DNA of 64,000 nucleotides from positions 31,371 to 95,370 of IMG/VR virus record IMGVR_UViG_3300047509_000088. The stretch is one strand, 5' to 3'. The position numbers and the translations under genes are program-made. Positions 31,205 to 64,000 of the stretch are shown here, in pieces. A model generated the notes under the pieces. It did no database searches, was not told the DNA's origin, and worked only from the letters and a program-made list of their open reading frames with translations. Every line of letters begins with the position of its first letter. Position 1 is the stretch's first letter. The DNA comes from a virus.

Positions 31205-31848
31205 CCAGGCCGCCGGCCAGGTCGGACAGGTTGGATCGATATGACGTCATCTGACCGATGATCATCCGGAGACTGGTGGTATGACTCGGCGAAGGCAATT
31301 AAGTCGTTTGGGATATTGAACATGGGAACGTCAAACCGCTGGCCGATTGACTGTATATCCGTATCCAGCCGCCGCCAGATCGCGACGTTCTCGGATCGGG
31401 AGGACGTAAAGAACACACGACCGGTCAGGTGGACATCCGGGTTTGGAAAGTGACGAACCACGATCTCTTTGACTTCAATTCCCGCCAGAAGGGCGATCAC
31501 CTGAGCGTATTCGCATCTAAAGCCATTCGCGTGTTCGATTATCCGACCCCAAGCCTGGACCGCGCCGAAGATGAAGAGGTGGCGGGGCTGGACGTAATCA
31601 CGAACCTCGCGTAAGGATGACCTTATCCACAATCCGCAATCGCACAGGGGAGCAGGCGCGGAGTGATACTGTTCGTGACTGGCGCGATTGATGCCCGGCT
31701 TCCAGGGTCCGTCGCCGCGAACGATCGACCAGAGGTCAGGGGAAGCGGTCGACCAGAGGTCAGGGGAAGCGGGGGACGGTGGCAACGTATAGCCCAGGAG
31801 ATGTGTCAATCGCCAGTCGTACGGCGACCAGGCGCGGTATCCGATCAT
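31201..31848 (-). CDS. GYRAW-family paralog 3
   Basis: Same motifs (CDCGLW, AWGRIIEH); internal 21-bp duplication (ASPDLWS x2). Confidence 0.8.
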   Translation of the reverse strand: MIGYRAWSPYDWRLTHLLGYTLPPSPASPDLWSTASPDLWSIVRGDGPWKPGINRASHEQYHSAPAPLCDCGLWIRSSLREVRDYVQPRHLFIFGAVQAWGRIIEHANGFRCEYAQVIALLAGIEVKEIVVRHFPNPDVHLTGRVFFTSSRSENVAIWRRLDTDIQSIGQRFDVPMFNIPNDLIAFAESYHQSPDDHRSDDVISIQPVRPGRRPG

Positions 31849-54377: not shown

Positions 54378-54421
54378 AAAAAAAGACTCGACAGACGAGA
54401 TGATCCGTCTGTCGAGTCTTT
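54378..54421 (-). terminator. Intrinsic terminator closing the leftward early-like region
   Basis: AAAGACTCGACAGACG..CGTCTGTCGAGTC followed by T7 on the minus strand. Confidence 0.8.
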
Positions 54422-54992
54422 ACTCTGGCGTACCGTGCCGATACCAGTGGGCGTAATGCATTCGACAGAAACCATGTCCGTAATGCTTGCGTCCACATTC
54501 ATCGATGGAACAATTATGCTGAGGGGAGGAGGCGGTTTCCTTCCGTAGTTGAGCATGGAGTTTGGAATGTTCGCTAGGTGTTATCCATCGTAGATGAGTA
54601 GGGTTGACGCACCCATGATCGAAACATAGATGGTGCGGTACGGTACCTACTGGGGGTTTGCCGATCATGTAGTGGTAGATAGCAGAGTGAAGTTTGAAGC
54701 CCTCGGATTGAGCATATCCTTGGGAATTGTGACTTTTGCTATCCCAATGCCAACATCCGTTTGTGTCAGTAGTGATCTTGCCGAGCCATCGTTCGATGAG
54801 CGCCAGGCGCTGCGGCCGATATTCTCGGTAATGAGGGCCGCACATTCCAAATGCAGCGTAGCCACGTCTGTCACATTCGTCGATTATGCACTTGGGCTTA
54901 GCCTGTCGGTATTGGCGTCCATAGTGAAGGACACATAGCCCAATCGCGTGTATCGGTCGTCCGCAATCGCTGATCAAACATACAGGGTTCAT
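54420..54992 (-). CDS. HNH endonuclease with Cx4C..CxxHY Zn-finger repeats
   Basis: NGCWHW, PHHLCFDHGCVNPTHL, three CxIxxC..HY repeats. Confidence 0.9.
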   Translation of the reverse strand: MNPVCLISDCGRPIHAIGLCVLHYGRQYRQAKPKCIIDECDRRGYAAFGMCGPHYREYRPQRLALIERWLGKITTDTNGCWHWDSKSHNSQGYAQSEGFKLHSAIYHYMIGKPPVGTVPHHLCFDHGCVNPTHLRWITPSEHSKLHAQLRKETASSPQHNCSIDECGRKHYGHGFCRMHYAHWYRHGTPE

Positions 54993-55056
54993 CTAGGTTC
55001 TATTTTACCCTCAAAATGCAAAAGGTCCGGCCGGACATCACTGTCCGGCCGGTCCT

Positions 55057-56784
55057 CTAGTTCCTGTCGGTTCGTCCGACTACGATTCCTGACGCGCCAG
55101 CCTTGACGCTGTCGCGAACCCTGATGGCTTCGGTTCTGTCGAGAACGAAGATCGACACACGATCCCCGTCGGTATCTCGACCGCACACGAGCCAACCATG
55201 TTTGCCGCTTCGTACGGCATAACGAATCTGGAGTCTTGCGATCATCCCTGGGGCCTGATGGTCACGTGGTATGCCATTCGCGGCGCCCAGTCTGCTGAGC
55301 CGACGCGAACGGGATGCAGCACGACCGACGGGTCAAGCTCGGCATGGTCAAGCGGCTTGTGCGTGTACGGGTTGATGGCGCCGGGAAGCTCGTTCCGGTA
55401 GGCGACGACGCTGTACGGCCGCACAGTCAGCCCATCATCGATCAGGTAGAACGCGCCGGACATCTTGCGGATGAATCCGACTCGCGGGAGATTGACGATC
55501 ACGTACATCGTCTGATCGTCCGGCGTGTGCTCGAATCGGCCGGTCCCGGGGATGGGGCCGCTGTACCTGATCGCTTCGAACCGGCCGGTCTCCGAGCGGC
55601 GGCCCCACGGCTCATACCGGTTCAACTGGATACTGGCGTCCATCCTGTCGACACGGCCGAAATTCCGAGCAATGTCGTCCATGTACGTCTCAAGCTCTGA
55701 TGTTCTCATACCCGAAAAGGCCCGGCGGCCCATCACTGGGCCGCCGGTACAGCTAGGCTACAGACGAGGACAATGGATGTAGCGGCAGAGATGGAACGGC
55801 TTGGACTTGCCCTTTGTCGGCGGTACCTGCTTGTATGGGCTGACGTAAGGCACGTACGGCGGGTAGACGTACGGGGATGGCGTCGGAGCGGGGGTAGGTG
55901 TCGTCATGACCCATCCTGCCGCTTCCGGGCCCGGTGCTGGAGGCGCAGTTTTGCCGATGATCGACATCAGCAAGAGAATGCCGAGAACCGCAAGCGCCGC
56001 TTTGACTCTACCGTTCATCTCCGGTTTCTTCGGTTAGACGTCGGTCGGTTAGACGGTTGGTCGGTTGTTCGCCTGACTGGCTTCTTTCCCTTGCCAGTCT
56101 GCCAGGTGATCAGGATTGCGACCATCAATCCGGCGATTGCCCAGGGATGATCCAACAGCCATCCAAGCAGCGCCAGCGCTACCAGGATCACTATGACTAT
56201 GAGGCATCCGCCTTGGGTCTGACGTGTGGTTACGAGCCTCATCTCAGTACAGGTTACGGATTTTGGGCGGACTCGACCGACGAATCTTGTGCTCTGGCAT
56301 CTCGGTCCAGCCGTCAAACCATGGTCCGAGCTTGCGAGTCCGAGCCTTGCCGACCTTGGTGGTGCATGTCGTGCTTGACGAATCCAGGGATGAGCAGTGC
56401 TTCTGTACTTGCGCGAGCGTCAGACCCGTGTCGAGAGTGCGGTTTGGGGTGTCGCGGTTCTGATAGAAGCGGATCAACTGGTACATTACGAATTCCGTCC
56501 CATTCCGGACAGACCCATTCCGTATGCGGACAGGAACCTGTATGCCTGATTGAGCCCGAGCGTCGTCTCTATTCCGTTTTCGGGCCCGAAGTAGGTTTGA
56601 CCAGGTCCGGCGCCGGGAGTGTTGAGGGTTGAGTCGAGCGTGACTTCGCCCGTCCACGGATTGACGCTCGCGAAGTTTCGGATCCGGAAGAACCGATACC
56701 TGACGGCACCGTCGCCAGGAGCCCACGTTCTGACGGTGAGTCCTCGTGCCCTGGCTGCTAACTCTAGGATTTCAAGTCTGGTCA
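55057..56784 (-). other. Small early-type genes (55057-55245, 55242-55709, 55758-56018, 56015 to about 56240, about 56300-56486, 56486-56784)
   Basis: Packed short ORFs; two with TM helices. Confidence 0.55.
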
Positions 56785-56819
56785 TTGAACGTTCCTTTTG
56801 TTTCATGTATCCTGTAGGG

Positions 56820-57347
56820 ATGCGATTTTGTTCTGTCGAAGGTTGCGGACGACAACACGTATCTCGCGGATGGTGCTCGCAGCATTACTATCTGTACGTG
56901 AAGCGCGGACACCCTAGCTCTCCACCTTTGATTGAGCAGTGGCTAGACGAATGGGTCATCGTCGGGACTGATGGATGCTGGCATTGGCAAGGCCGTTTCA
57001 ACGATGACGGATACGCGCTAAGGAGCGGCGGAGTCAAGGTGCATATCCATGCTTACCGATTCCTGATTGGAGATCCGCCGGCCGGTATGTCGCCACACCA
57101 CACATGTTTTAATCGTGATTGTGTCAACCCTACTCACCTTCAGTGGATGACACCGGGGAATCATGCACGTCTTCATCATCCACGTAAGAATCGACTCTGT
57201 TCGATCGATGGATGCGATCGGCCGCATAAAGCTCGTGGATGGTGCCAAATGCACTATGTTCGTTGGTGGAGCCACGGTACGACGGACTTAGAGCTGAGGC
57301 AGGACACGCTGGGACGTTGGCGTTACGGCCGGTTAACCCTGGGCTAG
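56820..57347 (+). CDS. HNH endonuclease with Zn-finger repeats (leaderless, opposite strand)
   Basis: DGCWHWQG, PHHTCFNRDCVNPTHL, CSIDGC..HY; promoter TTGAAC-N17-TATCCT-N6-ATG at 56785-56813. Confidence 0.9.
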   Translation: MRFCSVEGCGRQHVSRGWCSQHYYLYVKRGHPSSPPLIEQWLDEWVIVGTDGCWHWQGRFNDDGYALRSGGVKVHIHAYRFLIGDPPAGMSPHHTCFNRDCVNPTHLQWMTPGNHARLHHPRKNRLCSIDGCDRPHKARGWCQMHYVRWWSHGTTDLELRQDTLGRWRYGRLTLG

Positions 57348-57547
57348 ATACCTGGTCTGCCCATCTCCTGGCGACCACGTTCGAACCGTCAGCCCGCGAC
57401 CTCTCGCCGCAAGCTCCAGCCTCTCAAGTCTTGTCATGTTGTCTGTTTGGCTCCTTTTTCGAACAAGTGTTTGTTAGGAACTGTTAGATTGTCGAATCTA
57501 ACAGTTTTTGAATACGAATTGGGGTCGAATCTAACAAATCGCGGTCC

Positions 57548-58603
57548 TTATACAGACTCGACCTTTCCCCATGCTTTTGCCTCCTTGACGGCATCTCCGC
57601 TCAGATCCAACTGAGGAGAGAAGGACTCGGCGATGGACGGCACAAGGTAGAACCGAGCGGTTTCCCGTTTGATCGCTGACGGCTCGGAGGATGACAACTG
57701 ATGGAGAATCTGACGAGTCGCATCGTAGTCACGATCCATGGCACGCGCGATCTCCGGTGCGGTTTGTCCGGGATGCTTTTTGACGTATGCGACGATCGCG
57801 ATCTGTAGTGCCGTGGTCGCTTCGTACTCAGTGGTCATGATCGTCCACAATCCCGACTCTCCATCGAATGTCATCGGCACAGTGGAATCAGGCACACCTT
57901 TCCCGCCTAGGATGAGGACTCCTTCGGTTTCCCCCTCGTCGCGCGTCAGCATGGCCGTTGTGCGCGCCGCACCTACGCCGCTACCCTGAATTTGGTCCTG
58001 GCTCGACCACTGTCCTCCGCGCGCCTTCCCTTTGTTCTTATGGAGTAGGACGACGATCGAAACCCCGTACTTGCGTCCAAGCTTGTCTATCGTCTCAATC
58101 GTTTTGTTGTCTTTGTTGTAGGACACGACCATCGGGCCGAAGTGGCGTAGATCGTCGATGATGACCAGTTTGAGCGGGCCGCCGGTTGCTTCGTTCCCGT
58201 AGTCGACGAACAGTTTCTCTAGAACCTTCAGCCCTCCGTCATCGATCTTTGGGAAGTCTGTCACGATCTCCAGTCGCTTTGGGACGACTGGAATTTCCAA
58301 CTTCTCACACTGAAGCTTGATTCGACGTTGGATCGTTGCGAGTGTGTCCTCATACGCGATCAGGTACACGTCGCCATGCGCGACCGGCCAGCGGCCCAGG
58401 AAGGGTCGGTCAGCCGCTACGTGGATGCCGGCCGAGATCACGAAACCGGATTTGCCACCCTCACGCTTGGCACCACCGGCGAGCATGTTGCATCCCGCCG
58501 TCCACATACCGGCGATTGCCCATGGTTCATCCGGGATGATGGCTCGGACGAGTTGATTCGCGTTCATCCGCGCGCGCTCAGTCGTCGACTGGTTAGACGG
58601 CAC
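57548..58603 (-). CDS. RepA/AAA_25 RecA-fold helicase with C-terminal wHTH
   Basis: MLAGGAKREGGKS, LIAYED, LVIIDD, VLLH..K, GQTAPEIARAM. Confidence 0.85.
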   Translation of the reverse strand: MPSNQSTTERARMNANQLVRAIIPDEPWAIAGMWTAGCNMLAGGAKREGGKSGFVISAGIHVAADRPFLGRWPVAHGDVYLIAYEDTLATIQRRIKLQCEKLEIPVVPKRLEIVTDFPKIDDGGLKVLEKLFVDYGNEATGGPLKLVIIDDLRHFGPMVVSYNKDNKTIETIDKLGRKYGVSIVVLLHKNKGKARGGQWSSQDQIQGSGVGAARTTAMLTRDEGETEGVLILGGKGVPDSTVPMTFDGESGLWTIMTTEYEATTALQIAIVAYVKKHPGQTAPEIARAMDRDYDATRQILHQLSSSEPSAIKRETARFYLVPSIAESFSPQLDLSGDAVKEAKAWGKVESV

Positions 58604-61444
58604 GCAAGGTCGAGATGGTATCGGTAGGCATCTTCATCACTGAAGAGTCGGAGATACGCGATCGGGCCCACGAAAACCTCGCCATTCGATTCGATCCATG
58701 CGCCATTCGAATCGATGTCGAGCAATCGTCCTTCGCGTTCGAAGATTTCATGGCTCCCATCCTCGAAAGCCAAAACGAACAACTTATCAGGCATCGTGCA
58801 TTACCTCTATTTGCCGCACATGAATGCGGTCCCACGCAAAAAGGACCGGCCGGACATAATCTGTCCGGCCGGTATCTGACTGACTAACCTCCGCCATAGA
58901 TCGAAGCGACCACGCGCGACTTGCGTCCGATTGTGACTTCCTCGACGTTTGGCGCATACTGGCACATGTCAGACATTCTCGGATCCTCCGCTAGCGCTAG
59001 CGCCATTGCCGTATTCCACGTCAGTCCGGAGTATTCGGTAGGCTGCTCGACGGTTCCGTCAGGGTAGTGAATCTCCACGCGCCAAGTCTTGACGGGCTTG
59101 ACGGGCTTGTCGCGCTGTCTGATGTCCATCTTGGTCGGAGTCATCGACACTACAGGTCCTCCAGTACCAAGTTTGCAAGCTCGCGGGCTTCGTTCAGGAA
59201 CTCATAGCCGGTCAGATGCTCGCCATTTATCCGGGCCACACGCTCGGCGAGATGGCGCTTGCGGTTCGTTCGCTCAGTCAGCTTGCGCGCCGCTTCCTGC
59301 TCGGCGTTGACCCACTCGCGGGCTTCCATCGCAAGCTCGGCATTGACGACTCGCCGGTACTCGTCTGAGGCATCTCCGATGGCTCCGAGCGATGCGACTA
59401 CGGTTCCGTTGAGGAACGCCGCTGCTGTCTCGTAAACCGTATTCGGACTCTCATCCTCAAAGTCCGTATAGGAGACTTCCTGATCGTAGTCCCATACGAA
59501 CGTCAGCCCTACTGACTTTGCCCAGGTCTCCGCTTCAGCCAAGTCACGCGCGCCGCGAGCCCTACCCTCATCCGCTGTCTCAGTCTTCGGGTCATAGCCG
59601 TATCCAGCCTGATCGAAGAAGAAACGCTCGGCCGAGGTTAGGTTGTCGGTTGACATCAGAACGTCTCCGAGTAGAACGAGTCAGACGGCTCGATACCGTA
59701 CATCGCGTCGAACTGCTCTGCGCGCTCGGACTCGTCAAGCTCCGCATAGATGTCCTCGGCATGGGACGGATAGCCGAGCGCTTCGGTTGCTGACTGCTCA
59801 TCCGTCAGCCGCAGAGTATCCCAATACTCCGAATCAGCGGGCTGAGGATCGAATCGGTTGGACTCGTCAAGCTCGCGGTTCAAGTTGTGCATCCTGATCA
59901 TCTCGGTTGAATACCTCTACAAAGCGCTACGGGCCATCGTGTGACAGCCTACACGACCAAACGACCCATCAGCCATCACTGGCCGATGGGTCGAGGCTGA
60001 GGCTTACAGCGCTTCCTGCTTTGGGCTGTACTCGTCATGGTCGGGCCAGGATGAGACATCCACGTCGAGTCCGCTGTTGTCCGAATCATCTCCGTAGGCA
60101 TTCCACCATGCCTTCAGGATGCACGCTCGGCCGGTTCTGTCGTCGGGATGGCTGTCCATCTCGGACAGATGCTCAGCCATTGCCTGGGCCACGTACGCGT
60201 AGCCGTCGGATGTCAGCCGATGTTCAATCAGACTCTCGCACACTGAGCAATGCGTCGGACTGTCCGACTCATCCTCGGCCGTTATGATCAGCGGTTCGTC
60301 CCATGATTCGAAGCCGGGCCATTCCGAGAAGTCATCCTCAGCAAAGCCCGATGGCGCACATGCCGTACAGACAGCGTCATCACAAGTCAACCAATAACCG
60401 ATTGGATCTCCGTACATCAGTTGATCTCCTTCAGCGTGCTGCTCATCAGCGGATGAACGTATACGCACTTGATTCCCTTTCGAACTCGGACGATCGGCCG
60501 GACTGGCTTGACTGGCAGCTTGCGCCAGAATCGAACGCTCATATCTAGCTTTGCTCCCTCAGTACCCATTTCTGAGCCTCGTGCGACCACACGCGCTGAC
60601 TGAGCAGCGCATAGCCTCTATCCATGTCCTTCAGGACAGCAGCCCAATCGATCGTCTCCGCTTTCATGTCTCTATTCCTTGTGTGCTGAAGTGTTGGCAA
60701 GCAGTAGCGTCCAGTATTGCTCCGAGTACCGAACGATCGGCTCGACAGGCCCGTACTTGCGCTCCATCCTGTAGACCGTATCAAGGATCGATTCCATCTG
60801 ATCGGCAAGCAGCGCGCAACCCTCCGTTGCTTCGGGCGGACGGGCTGACGGCGAGTCAAACAAGTGTCTTGACGTTGGATGGATTCTCATACGCGAAAAG
60901 GTCCGGCGGCTGATCACTCAGCCGCCGGAACGATCAGAACTCGGCCGGCGAGTCTGAGTCTGAATTGTTCACGTAGTACGTGGGAAGCGGACAGATGTAG
61001 TCATCGTCCGTATCGGCAATGATCTGATCGACGGTATCGATGTTCACCCATATTGCCGGGCTACCATCCAACTTGCTGAACTTGGAACCGTACTCACAGT
61101 TCGTGGGATCGCTCGTCATGACTGAGCAGATGTGCTCGTAACCGAGCTTGACCAGGTTTCGCTTTGCGATCGCCAACTTGAGTCTGAGTTCTGAATCTCT
61201 CATACGCGAAAAGGTCCGGCGCGGCATCACTGCCGCGCCGGAACGTTCAACCCTAGTCGCCACTTGGGTTGGCTTGCATCTCGCGAATCTGGATACGAAG
61301 CGCGCGAATCTGGCGCATCGTCCGCTCGCGGTCGCGGCGATCGAAACTGCTACCAGCCAGTCGGTTTGCTTCGCCCTGAAGCATTGCCAACTGGACTTTG
61401 TAGTTTTCGATCTCCTGAAGGCTGTACGTGCGTTTGGTTCTCAT
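58564..61444 (-). other. Small early-type genes (58564-58794, 58884-59150, 59150-59656, 59656-59901, 60004 to about 60416, 60545 to about 60667, 60672-60890, 60934-61203, 61253-61444)
   Basis: Short, mostly acidic ORFs, several starting right after the conserved hairpins. Confidence 0.6.
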
Positions 61445-62081
61445 ACGCCAAAAGGTCCGGCGCGGCATCACTGCCGCGCCGGAACATTCGACAAGCTATA
61501 GTCGCGTTGACTAGCTTTCGCTTGTCTCTTAATCGGTAGGTTCAGGTTTGATCTCTGCTTCTACCGTTCGTCAAGTTCAACCGTACTTCCTACTTGTCTG
61601 CCTCAGTGTCTTGTCCTCACTCAACAGTCAGGGTATTCCGCTCACGCACGGCCGCATGACTTACCTAGCTTCGGATGACTACCTTGGGTGGTTGCTTTCC
61701 TGGTAGTGCCGATGAGCCTATGACGTCCGGGTGTTTGTTAAGGTTCTCCGCTCTTCCGTCCCCGCCGCTTGTCTGACTGTCCATAGTAAACCATGCTTAC
61801 AGGCATCGTGCCTATCTAATATTGGGTGACTTTTACAGGTATTTGTGCAACGCCCGTTCGATCTGCTGGCGCGCGTACGCGTACGGGTGTCGTCCTGGCC
61901 GTCGGATTGGCTGGACGTCCAGATAGACGCTCGGCCGGTTGTCGAGCCGCTAGGGCCGCCGTAGGGCGCATACGCGCCATCGTGCACTCGCAACGGCGAG
62001 CACACGCTAGCTCGGAGGAGGGTACGGGCGATCCGGGATCTTGGGTTGGATCTTGCCAGGATCGATCCCGGATCGTTTGCG

Positions 62082-62154
62082 TGGTGCCGAGCGGATTCGA
62101 ACCGCTATACTCCAGCTTGGCGGGCTGGCGCTTTGTCCCTTAAGCTACGGCACC
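62082..62154 (-). tRNA. tRNA-like gene with GCC (Gly) anticodon and atypical identity elements
   Basis: GGTGCCG/CGGCACC acceptor, CCAGC-CCGCCAA-GCTGG (C33), GGTTCGAATCC T-loop, A73. Confidence 0.75.
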
Positions 62155-62956: not shown

Positions 62957-63136
62957 CTAGTTGATCTCGTTCAGGTGGGCGGCCCACCGATCAGCGTCGA
63001 CCTTGCTTGCGAAGGTCATCTCGTCGCCGTGATGGTCAAGCACGTTCTGGGCAGTGCTGTTGTCGACGATCACGTAGCTCGTGACAGGGGCCATGAAGCT
63101 GTAGTGGTTGACCTTGGTGCCGCTTGTGAATCTCAT
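62957..63136 (-). CDS. Small hypothetical protein (59 aa, leaderless)
   Basis: Below the ORF-track cutoff. MRFTSGTKVNHYSF..RWAAHLNEIN; TACAAT-N7-ATG. Confidence 0.6.
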   Translation of the reverse strand: MRFTSGTKVNHYSFMAPVTSYVIVDNSTAQNVLDHHGDEMTFASKVDADRWAAHLNEIN

Positions 63137-63382
63137 AATCCAGATTGTAAGCCTAGTTAGCGGGTTGTGCCGCTATCACTTTCCGGAAATTGTGCTATCA
63201 CGCGCATGCGCCTACGCGTGGGGCCGCCCGTACGGCGCGCGCGTGTGCGCTGGCGCGCCTAGTCCATTGCCCTACCGAATAGCGGCATTACAGGGCACTA
63301 CAGCCCGCTGTAGGGGTATGTCCGGTATGTGGCCACAAGGGCGCCGGGTAGTCGGTAGGGCCGTGTAGGGCATTAGGTGGCT

Positions 63383-63440
63383 CCGCAGGGCAGGCACCTG
63401 GACAGCCGCAGGGCAGGCACCTGGACAGCCGCAGGGCAGG
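63383..63440. repeat. 23-bp tandem repeat (CCGCAGGGCAGGCACCTGGACAG), about 2.5 copies
   Basis: Direct reading. Confidence 0.85.
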
Positions 63441-64000
63441 GCCCGAGAACGTCGTTTTTGACGTTTTGAGCATGGCTGTAGGAGGCCCTGTAGTCGACGC
63501 TACGGCCCTCAATCTGGCCAGTGGCACTGGGCTAGGGGTACCCCTGTTACGGTGGCTTAGGCTCGATAATCGACATTTACCGTAGGTACGTATGTACGTA
63601 TAGTCAGGGTTACAGGGCATGGAACCATGACTATACAGGCATACGGGCCATCCCCGTAGCCCAGCACTAGCCACTAGGGCATGGTAGTACGGATTGGGTT
63701 CGTTGCCCAGGTAGACTGTATAGCGGTACCTTATCTATGACGCAGTACAGTACGTGGACCGAACATACGCTTGTATACCCTGCCTATACAGCCTTATATC
63801 CTCATCAGATATCGTATATGATCTCGTATCAAGCGGCCCTGCTGACCAGCATGGCGCCGTGCATGGTCAGTGGCACCTGGTGAGGCATGGGTCGCCGCAT
63901 GGCCGTACGGTGGCTCGTAGGGCTCGGAGGAGGCATGCCAGGGGCCCTACCGGCGGAGCAAATGTTCGGTCTTTTTTTTGGACTGGGCAGATGGCCGGAG

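Follow-up and report, generated by a model that had tools for sequence, protein, structure and literature searches.

The stretch analysed here (the window, 64,000 nucleotides) is the final 64 kb of a 95,370-bp phage record of soil origin in IMG/VR (IMGVR_UViG_3300047509_000088, positions 31,371 to 95,370), which CheckV rates as 92% complete and in which no terminal repeats were found. The terminase, portal, protease and major capsid genes are located at the left end of the record, and 2.5-9 kb from its right end lies a minus-strand array of seven hairpins, H1 to H7, among genes that run inward from the genome end (Table 1). It is this repeated hairpin, which in four copies continues through a conserved linker into a start codon, that is described here. 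The capsid relatives of the phage are prophages of Actinomycetota (among them Jiangellaceae, Kribbellaceae, Streptomyces, Amycolatopsis and Actinomadura), and because of this relationship the host is likely an actinomycete. The GC content of the phage is 55-65%, as compared to 68-70% in the capsid relatives G001-G003.

A first-pass annotation of this DNA had described seven co-oriented minus-strand hairpins, one of them with a GATTA loop. All seven were recovered where it had placed them, between 55027 and 61483, and the deviating loop is that of H5 (GAUUA), the other six copies carrying GUGA. Four copies continue as CCUUUU(C/G)G(C/G)GU-AUG-AGA into an open reading frame (ORF); the tail CCTTTTSGSGTATGAGA and the form CCTTTT(C/G)G(C/G)GTATGAGA each have four exact occurrences. 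Of the remaining copies, H5 and H7 retain remnants of this tail (GCGT and TTTGAGG, respectively) and H4 keeps the top of the hairpin only. The H7 tail ACCTTTTGCATTTTGAGG looks like a decayed start context, and H5 and H7, which share an identical stem at a distance of 3.8 kb, both resemble decayed versions of one module. The pattern CCGG-N18-CCGG-N-CCTTTT was matched 8 times in this DNA, as compared to 0.89 matches expected; 8 matches were reached in 0 of 100 shuffles, and six of them are the minus-strand hairpins. A covariance model built from the seven copies detected no further copy in the whole 95,370-bp record, a scan for perfect stems agrees with it on the set of copies, and no Rfam family matched at the hairpins.

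The covariation that had been proposed for the stems is borne out by an alignment of the seven copies, in which 9 of the 12 stem pairs change on both sides and 97.6% of the cells are paired. None of 500 shuffles reached the observed pairing or covariation score, a control that overstates independence because all copies are paralogs of a single genome; when the partner is shifted by 1-3 columns, pairing falls to 17-50%. The fixed parts are the CCGG/CCGG base (6 of 7 copies), the CA..UG top pairs (7 of 7), the GUGA loop (6 of 7) and a 17-nt tail in four copies, with the five middle stem pairs varying among copies. Five different mid-stems that all pair perfectly would be hard to explain otherwise than by selection for pairing, and to judge from the alignment it is the structure of the stem that is selected, not its sequence. 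Since GUGA is a GNRA tetraloop on the sense strand only, selection on RNA is indicated. The predicted folding energies of the 59-63-nt elements range from -29.5 to -37.5 kcal/mol (z-scores of -3.6 to -6.5), with the stem alone at about -27 to -28 kcal/mol.

Both the position of the hairpins behind stop codons and the Met-Arg starts that follow them had been recognized earlier, and both descriptions hold. H2 to H7 begin 10, 4, 10, 10, 10 and 4 nt, respectively, from the stop of the preceding gene to the stem, and the distance from stem to ATG is 11 nt in H1-H3 and 12 nt in H6, where the stem is one pair shorter. No purine-rich Shine-Dalgarno (SD) sequence was found before the starts of g1, g2, g3 and g16, including in the CCUUUUCGCGU linker, and the genes after H4, H5 and H7 start 34-60 nt downstream with normal SD sites. 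The four ATG-AGA ORFs (63, 89, 72 and 155 codons) have a GC content at third codon positions of 0.66-0.80 and positive codon scores in frame. H1 carries the full module despite the absence of an ORF directly upstream, which indicates that the 3′ half of the element serves the downstream gene. A Met-Arg start is also seen closer to the genome end, where an ORF of 59 codons, whose coding score is the highest in the arm, begins with ATG-AGA 7 nt after a TACAAT -10 box and lacks an SD; it is probably a leaderless gene that shares its Met-Arg(AGA) start with the hairpin-linked genes.

Evidence for conservation of the element comes from two relatives, P0003 and P0007, which are known as predicted proteins only, so that wobble positions and 5′ arms are not visible in them. 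P0003 is 78% identical to g16 and has the N-terminus ..CNRSGGPVMGRRTFSGMRT (...VLVCNRSGGPVMGRRTFSGMRTSE), and P0007 is 65% identical to g2 and starts with MGRRSFWRMRD (MGRRSFWRMRDSEL). Both N-termini are the exact translation of element-type DNA ending in ATGAGA, as seen next to the translated H1, H2, H3 and H6 of the present phage. On this reading the gene callers extended both predictions upstream through the element, and since the N-termini translate element-type DNA, the module has by the same reading been kept before the same genes (g2 and g16) while the proteins changed by 22-35%. The P0003 residues ahead of the element fit, by eye, the end of a g15-like gene in another frame, with 4 nt instead of 10 between stop and stem; if this is right, the local order g15-hairpin-g16 appears to be kept in this relative as well. 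The P0007 element combines an H6-type 3′ arm with an H1-type tail and differs from the phage's own H2, and such a chimera hints at sequence exchange between copies. The P0007 protein further differs from g2 by an internal insertion and by about 30 extra residues beyond the place where g2 ends ahead of H3; thus the g2/g3 junction differs between the two phages. More distant homologs of g16 (P0004 and P0005, 46-50% identity) carry no element at the N-terminus. Retention of the downstream genes in two relatives would run counter to shuffling, although the distances covered are very short.

In searches for related DNA, a megablast comparison of the array against GenBank phages gave no match, blastn with one element returned chance matches of 18 nt only, scans of IMG/VR with the tail pattern and with the hairpin pattern CCGG-N6-AGTGAT-N6-CCGG-N-CCTTTT gave no hits, and an IMG/VR scan for loci of the g16 family found none. 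For the AAA_25 protein g11 no close relative was found. Such hairpins are absent from the capsid relatives G001-G003, and the tail pattern is absent from five actinomycete genomes with capsid-related prophages and from 401 sampled genomes of that phylum. Two matches on metagenome contigs (L008 and L009) proved to be unrelated, ordinary bidirectional terminators.

Table 1. Hairpins, genes and other features of the arm. Positions are those of the window; in the descriptions, stems are given in the direction of the minus strand.
Feature	Position	Strand	Description
Element H1	61439..61485	minus	GTT, 12-bp stem (61483-61456) with GUGA loop, CCTTTTGGCGT, then ATGAGA as start of g1; no ORF directly upstream
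Element H2	61198..61244	minus	Stem 61242-61215; same as H1 at 46 of 47 nt; 10 nt past stop of g1; ATGAGA is start of g2
Element H3	60885..60931	minus	Stem 60929-60902 with other mid-stem (CGGCTGA); 4 nt past stop of g2; ATGAGA is start of g3
Hairpin H4	59959..59993	minus	Stem 59993-59962, 14 bp, unrelated sequence, one G-U pair; CA-GUGA-UG top kept, then UUU; 10 nt past stop of g6; g7 (with SD) begins 60 nt downstream
Hairpin H5	58834..58873	minus	Stem 58873-58845, 12 bp, GAUUA loop, tail CCTTTTTGCGT; GGGACC replaces ATGAGA; 10 nt past stop of g9; g10 (with SD) begins 50 nt downstream
Element H6	55704..55750	minus	GTA, 11-bp stem (55747-55722) with GUGA loop, GCCTTTTCGGGT, then ATGAGA as start of g16; 10 nt past stop of g15
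Hairpin H7	55010..55055	minus	Stem 55052-55027, 11 bp, identical to H5 stem; GUGA loop; tail ACCTTTTGCATTTTGAGG; 4 nt past stop of g17; HNH gene g18 begins 34 nt downstream
g1	61253..61444	minus	63 aa, Arg-rich, no family match; ATG-AGA 11 nt after H1
g2	60934..61203	minus	89 aa, no family match; ATG-AGA after H2
g3	60672..60890	minus	72 aa, no family match; ATG-AGA after H3
g4-g15, g17	55057..60667	minus	Tightly packed or overlapping; most with SD of AAGGA/GAGG type
g11	57548-58567	minus	AAA_25 ATPase; C-terminal region resembling a winged helix-turn-helix (wHTH)
g16	55242..55709	minus	155 aa, member of a rare family; ATG-AGA after H6
g18	54420-54992		HNH gene after H7
HNH gene in g12	about 56820-57347	plus	HNH endonuclease, inserted at 5′ end of g12 (region 56619-57437)
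Intact g12 start	56696-56785		
Truncated g12 start	57333-57437		34 codons, upstream of the plus-strand HNH gene
Spacer	57479-57545		Between g11 and the g12 fragment
Terminator	54382-54421	minus	17-bp stem followed by TTTTTTGTG
tRNA-Gly (GCC)	62081-62154	minus	Same orientation as H1, about 600 nt upstream of it
59-codon ORF	62957-63136	minus	ATG-AGA, no SD; probably leaderless
Tandem repeat	about 63380-63445 (by eye)	minus	About 2.5 copies of a 23-nt unit, GTGCCTGCCCTGCGGCTGTCCAG

As in intrinsic terminators, the hairpins are GC-rich stem-loops (stems of 11-14 bp, loops of 4-5 nt) near a stop and co-oriented with the genes. The yardstick for a terminator U-tract is typically 5 or more U in 8 nt, and against this the U-run consists of four U (five in H5) and is offset by 2-3 nt from the stem in six copies, with H4 having three U and no offset. 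H5 was the sole copy to pass a generic terminator scan. By a TransTermHP-style tail score, six copies range from -2.07 to -2.63 and H4 scores -3.82, as compared to -4.62 for the canonical terminator listed in Table 1, a textbook structure that closes the arm after g18. The weak tail scores and the single pass in the scan fit leaky rather than full stops; the hairpins would be at best leaky terminators, which would suit their place inside a multi-gene arm. The earlier remark that a U-tract only 5 nt from the next ATG is not explained by termination alone is a fair one.

We consider that the element, with about an even chance of this being correct, is an RNA junction module, in which a hairpin with a GNRA cap, serving as weak terminator or 3′-end protector, is joined to a conserved start region that functions independently of an SD. 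From the sequence and structure of the element, its covariation and positions, its strand specificity and its conservation in two relatives we infer termination, stabilization and SD-independent initiation. The elements would act in the RNA of the leftward-transcribed arm, which consists of small genes without family match. A GC-rich stem of 11-14 bp with a GUGA loop just past a stop and with a short, offset U-run would form a weak, leaky intrinsic terminator or attenuator, and the same hairpin would block 3′-to-5′ exonucleases; together, attenuation and the exonuclease barrier could set expression level and RNA stability separately for every gene block. AUG-AGA is reached in four copies through a linker of 11 nt that is rich in U and poor in purines. 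By locking away the upstream sequence, the hairpin may place the start codon in a defined open window that is usable without SD pairing. Initiation without an SD is common in Actinomycetota. Stop, hairpin, linker and start would thus make up a portable junction that has been copied within the genome, with H4, H5 and H7 having lost the start part or never having had it, so that the genes behind them would use ordinary SD sites. The start windows of g1, g2, g3 and g16 have an openness of 0.46-0.54, as compared to 0.39 ± 0.12 for random ATGs, and this agrees weakly with the proposed junction. Recombination between copies probably happens as well, as suggested by the near identity of H1 and H2, the common stem of H5 and H7 and the chimeric P0007 element; it would be a side effect and not the reason for the element.

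Several points weigh against this reading. Four U at an offset of 2-3 nt make a poor terminator by standard criteria, so the hairpins may not terminate transcription at all. The gain in start codon accessibility is only about one standard deviation. The strict conservation of the GUGA loop and the linker exceeds what a generic terminator or an open window would need and suggests that a protein or nuclease recognizes the element in a sequence-specific manner. A promoter feeding the array was searched for in vain, and the host is only probably an actinomycete.

The main alternative, which we regard as unlikely, is that the linker serves as a processing site. An endonuclease of the host or the phage would cut the polycistronic RNA in the single-stranded UUUU(C/G)G(C/G)GU, leaving the upstream RNA with a protective 3′ hairpin and the downstream message with a leader that is very short or absent. 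This would account for a linker whose sequence and distance to the AUG are conserved beyond structural need, for starts without SD, and for a weak U-tract that speaks against pure termination. Leaderless translation is efficient in actinomycetes, and as the 59-codon ORF near the genome end looks leaderless, AUG-AGA may be the preferred leaderless start of the phage. However, RNase III would have to act on perfect stems of merely 12 bp, which is short for this enzyme, a search for an RNase III domain of the phage found none, and the linker is not known to contain an actinobacterial RNase E/J cleavage motif. An extended version, quite unlikely in our view, holds that a nuclease or phage protein recognizes the invariant GUGA top together with the UUUUCGCGU linker and divides one long early transcript into upstream RNAs that end in a hairpin cap and AUG-AGA mRNAs that are nearly leaderless; the conserved flanks would in addition allow copies to swap stems and to bring new genes into the arm and out of it.

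The invariance of the loop and its two closing pairs in six of seven copies, which includes H4 with its otherwise unrelated stem, could also reflect an operator. In that case the CA-GUGA-UG top, the linker or both would be bound by a phage RNA-binding protein that coordinately switches termination or translation of the marked genes, by analogy with lambda N-boxB or T4 RegA. The first gene of the array, g1, encodes an Arg-rich protein that might play this role, and GNRA-type folds are known targets of arginine-rich peptides. However, g1 has no match to an RNA-binding family, H5 has a non-GNRA pentaloop, and GNRA loops are simply the most stable ones and common in terminators. We consider an operator improbable.

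A role as DNA recombination joints was part of the initial interpretation, in which the repeats mediate insertion, deletion and exchange of gene cassettes in the manner of the promoter-early stem-loop (PeSL) or boundary sequences. Copies that are nearly identical (H1 and H2, which flank one ORF without family match), the common stem of H5 and H7, the mixed element of P0007, which suggests copy-to-copy exchange, and genes between the copies that are unrelated and without family match speak for such a role. As the main role of the element it is nevertheless distinctly improbable, because the compensatory changes and the strand-specific GNRA loop point to selection on RNA and not on DNA homology, which is in fact reduced by the diverged mid-stems. 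In addition, no tyrosine recombinase was found in the record, the two relatives keep elements with the same genes, with the order g15-H6-g16 apparently maintained, and no deletion joints at hairpins were seen on the contigs of three soil runs, near-identical strains being present as short fragments only in two other soil runs.

The suggestion that the hairpin is itself a promoter, with a polymerase reading the extruded hairpin and starting at or near the AUG to give leaderless mRNAs as the virion RNA polymerase of N4 does, is scarcely credible and was not upheld: the fixed distance from hairpin to ATG, the lack of an SD and the location near the genome end are compatible with it, but three copies have no gene start nearby, no -10/-35 combination is suitably placed for transcription from the ATG or its vicinity (ACCTTT, at positions -12 to -7, is no -10 box), and no promoter-like site was found at or within the elements. 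N4 promoters have stems of 5-7 bp and 3-nt loops, unlike the stems of 11-14 bp and loops of 4-5 nt found here. Domains of sigma-70 region 2 or region 4 were not detected in the record; a T7-type RNA polymerase (PF00940) gave no match in it either, a weak negative as control genomes also gave no match. The longest ORF, of 1509 aa, is tape-measure-like, and none exceeds this length.

Some further candidates were considered and dropped. These include a host sigma-A promoter in or after the hairpin and an ECF-type promoter. The in-frame translation of the 3′ arm, RRTFSR, resembles the Tat motif of a twin-arginine signal peptide, but no hydrophobic region follows. A start at the GTG of the loop or at an ATG there would be sequestered in the stem, and the ATG is missing in H3. 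Integron attC sites were rejected on account of perfect stems without extrahelical bases, the 5′ flank GTTCCGG instead of the GTTRRRY of R/L core sites, and the lack of a detectable tyrosine recombinase in the record. Translational coupling is not compatible with H1, which has no upstream ORF.

Concerning the genes of the array, they had been described as unrelated to each other, with an HNH gene in one of the slots. The former is correct in general, the exceptions being a partial duplicate of g12 and two HNH paralogs, and apart from g11 none of the small ORFs of the array matched a PHROG or Pfam family; the early host-takeover role suggested for these genes is a conjecture. The latter could not be maintained: the HNH gene is on the opposite strand and is inserted into g12 rather than filling a hairpin-bounded slot of its own, and a second HNH gene, g18, comes after H7; the two are 42% identical. 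The truncated copy of the g12 start upstream of the inserted gene is 83% identical to the intact start at the protein level and about 78% at the DNA level, with many synonymous differences. The arrangement looks like a homing-endonuclease insertion that carries a recoded copy of its own target. The adjoining spacer contains a perfect 12-4-12 palindrome, AACTGTTAGATT-CGAC-AATCTAACAGTT, and an additional direct copy of TGTTAGATTCGAC; each TGTTAGATT in it reads as an extended -10 box (TGn-TAGATT). It is likely that the spacer holds an internal promoter along with operators, which the wHTH-like C-terminal region of g11 might bind. On the other side of the array, the approximately 600 nt between the tRNA-Gly gene and H1 have poor coding scores, and the tandem repeat listed in Table 1 lies in the largely non-coding right end.

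Among known systems, the PeSL cassettes of T4-type phages (Arbiol et al. 2010, PMC2839356; Comeau et al. 2014, PMC4122927) are similar in that they are repeated composite intergenic units, in which an upstream stop is followed by a terminator-like stem-loop and a downstream start codon, and in their accumulation, within a plastic region of the genome, ahead of small genes that match no family. PeSL-mediated indels and mini-circles have been shown experimentally in T4-type phages (PMC2839356, PMC4122927). Unlike the present element, PeSLs possess a strong sigma-70 -35/-10 promoter and an SD; in the array the stem-loop is present and covaries, no internal promoter is seen, a start codon follows in four of seven copies without an SD, and only 11 nt separate stem and AUG. 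The SAS/ESAS of Cluster K mycobacteriophages and Cluster EF Microbacterium phages (Pope et al. 2011, PMC3203893; Jacobs-Sera et al. 2020, PMC7302621) are likewise actinophage repeats at a fixed distance from translation starts, a subset having an inverted repeat immediately upstream, and in related phages they stay ahead of the same gene families. A role in initiation has been suggested for them (PMC3203893, PMC7302621). The element shares the conservation before the same gene family, as deduced from the protein sequences of the P0003 and P0007 N-termini. However, SAS is a 13-bp SD-containing motif of the GGGATAGGAGCCC type, 3-8 bp before the start, and the linker has no GGAG-type core. The ESAS arms are conserved in sequence, imperfect and 17 bp long with variable spacers, whereas the stem of the element varies with compensation and is capped by a fixed GNRA loop, after which a U-run follows.

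The early RNase III sites of T7 (R0.3-R1.3) resemble the element as repeated hairpins between early genes of an arm transcribed from the genome end, and either could leave a protective 3′ hairpin on the upstream RNA. In T7 the hairpins are longer and irregular, contain internal loops and precede normal ribosome-binding sites. Their shape, with about two helical turns and an internal loop, is not matched by the perfect 12-bp stems found here. With intrinsic terminators and internal attenuators, as outlined in reports on processing and stabilization of operon RNA (PMC4423207) and on internal terminators that set stoichiometry (PMC9045158), the element has in common a GC-rich stem with a stable tetraloop, located past a stop between cistrons, co-oriented and followed by U residues; it differs from them by its 4-nt U-run at an offset of 2-3 nt and by a 3′ flank that is conserved through the next start codon, a feature not known from ordinary terminators.

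By these comparisons the element belongs neither to PeSL nor to SAS/ESAS. It would be another repeated composite gene-boundary signal of phage accessory arms, in a new form, and by itself opens no new category. If the proposed junction is real, a minimal portable unit of 47 nt ends or attenuates one transcription unit and launches SD-less translation of the next, which would provide a compact natural part for studying, in Gram-positive hosts of high GC content, how operons are punctuated and how translation starts independently of an SD, and would enlarge the set of phage cassette-boundary signals now represented by PeSL and SAS/ESAS.

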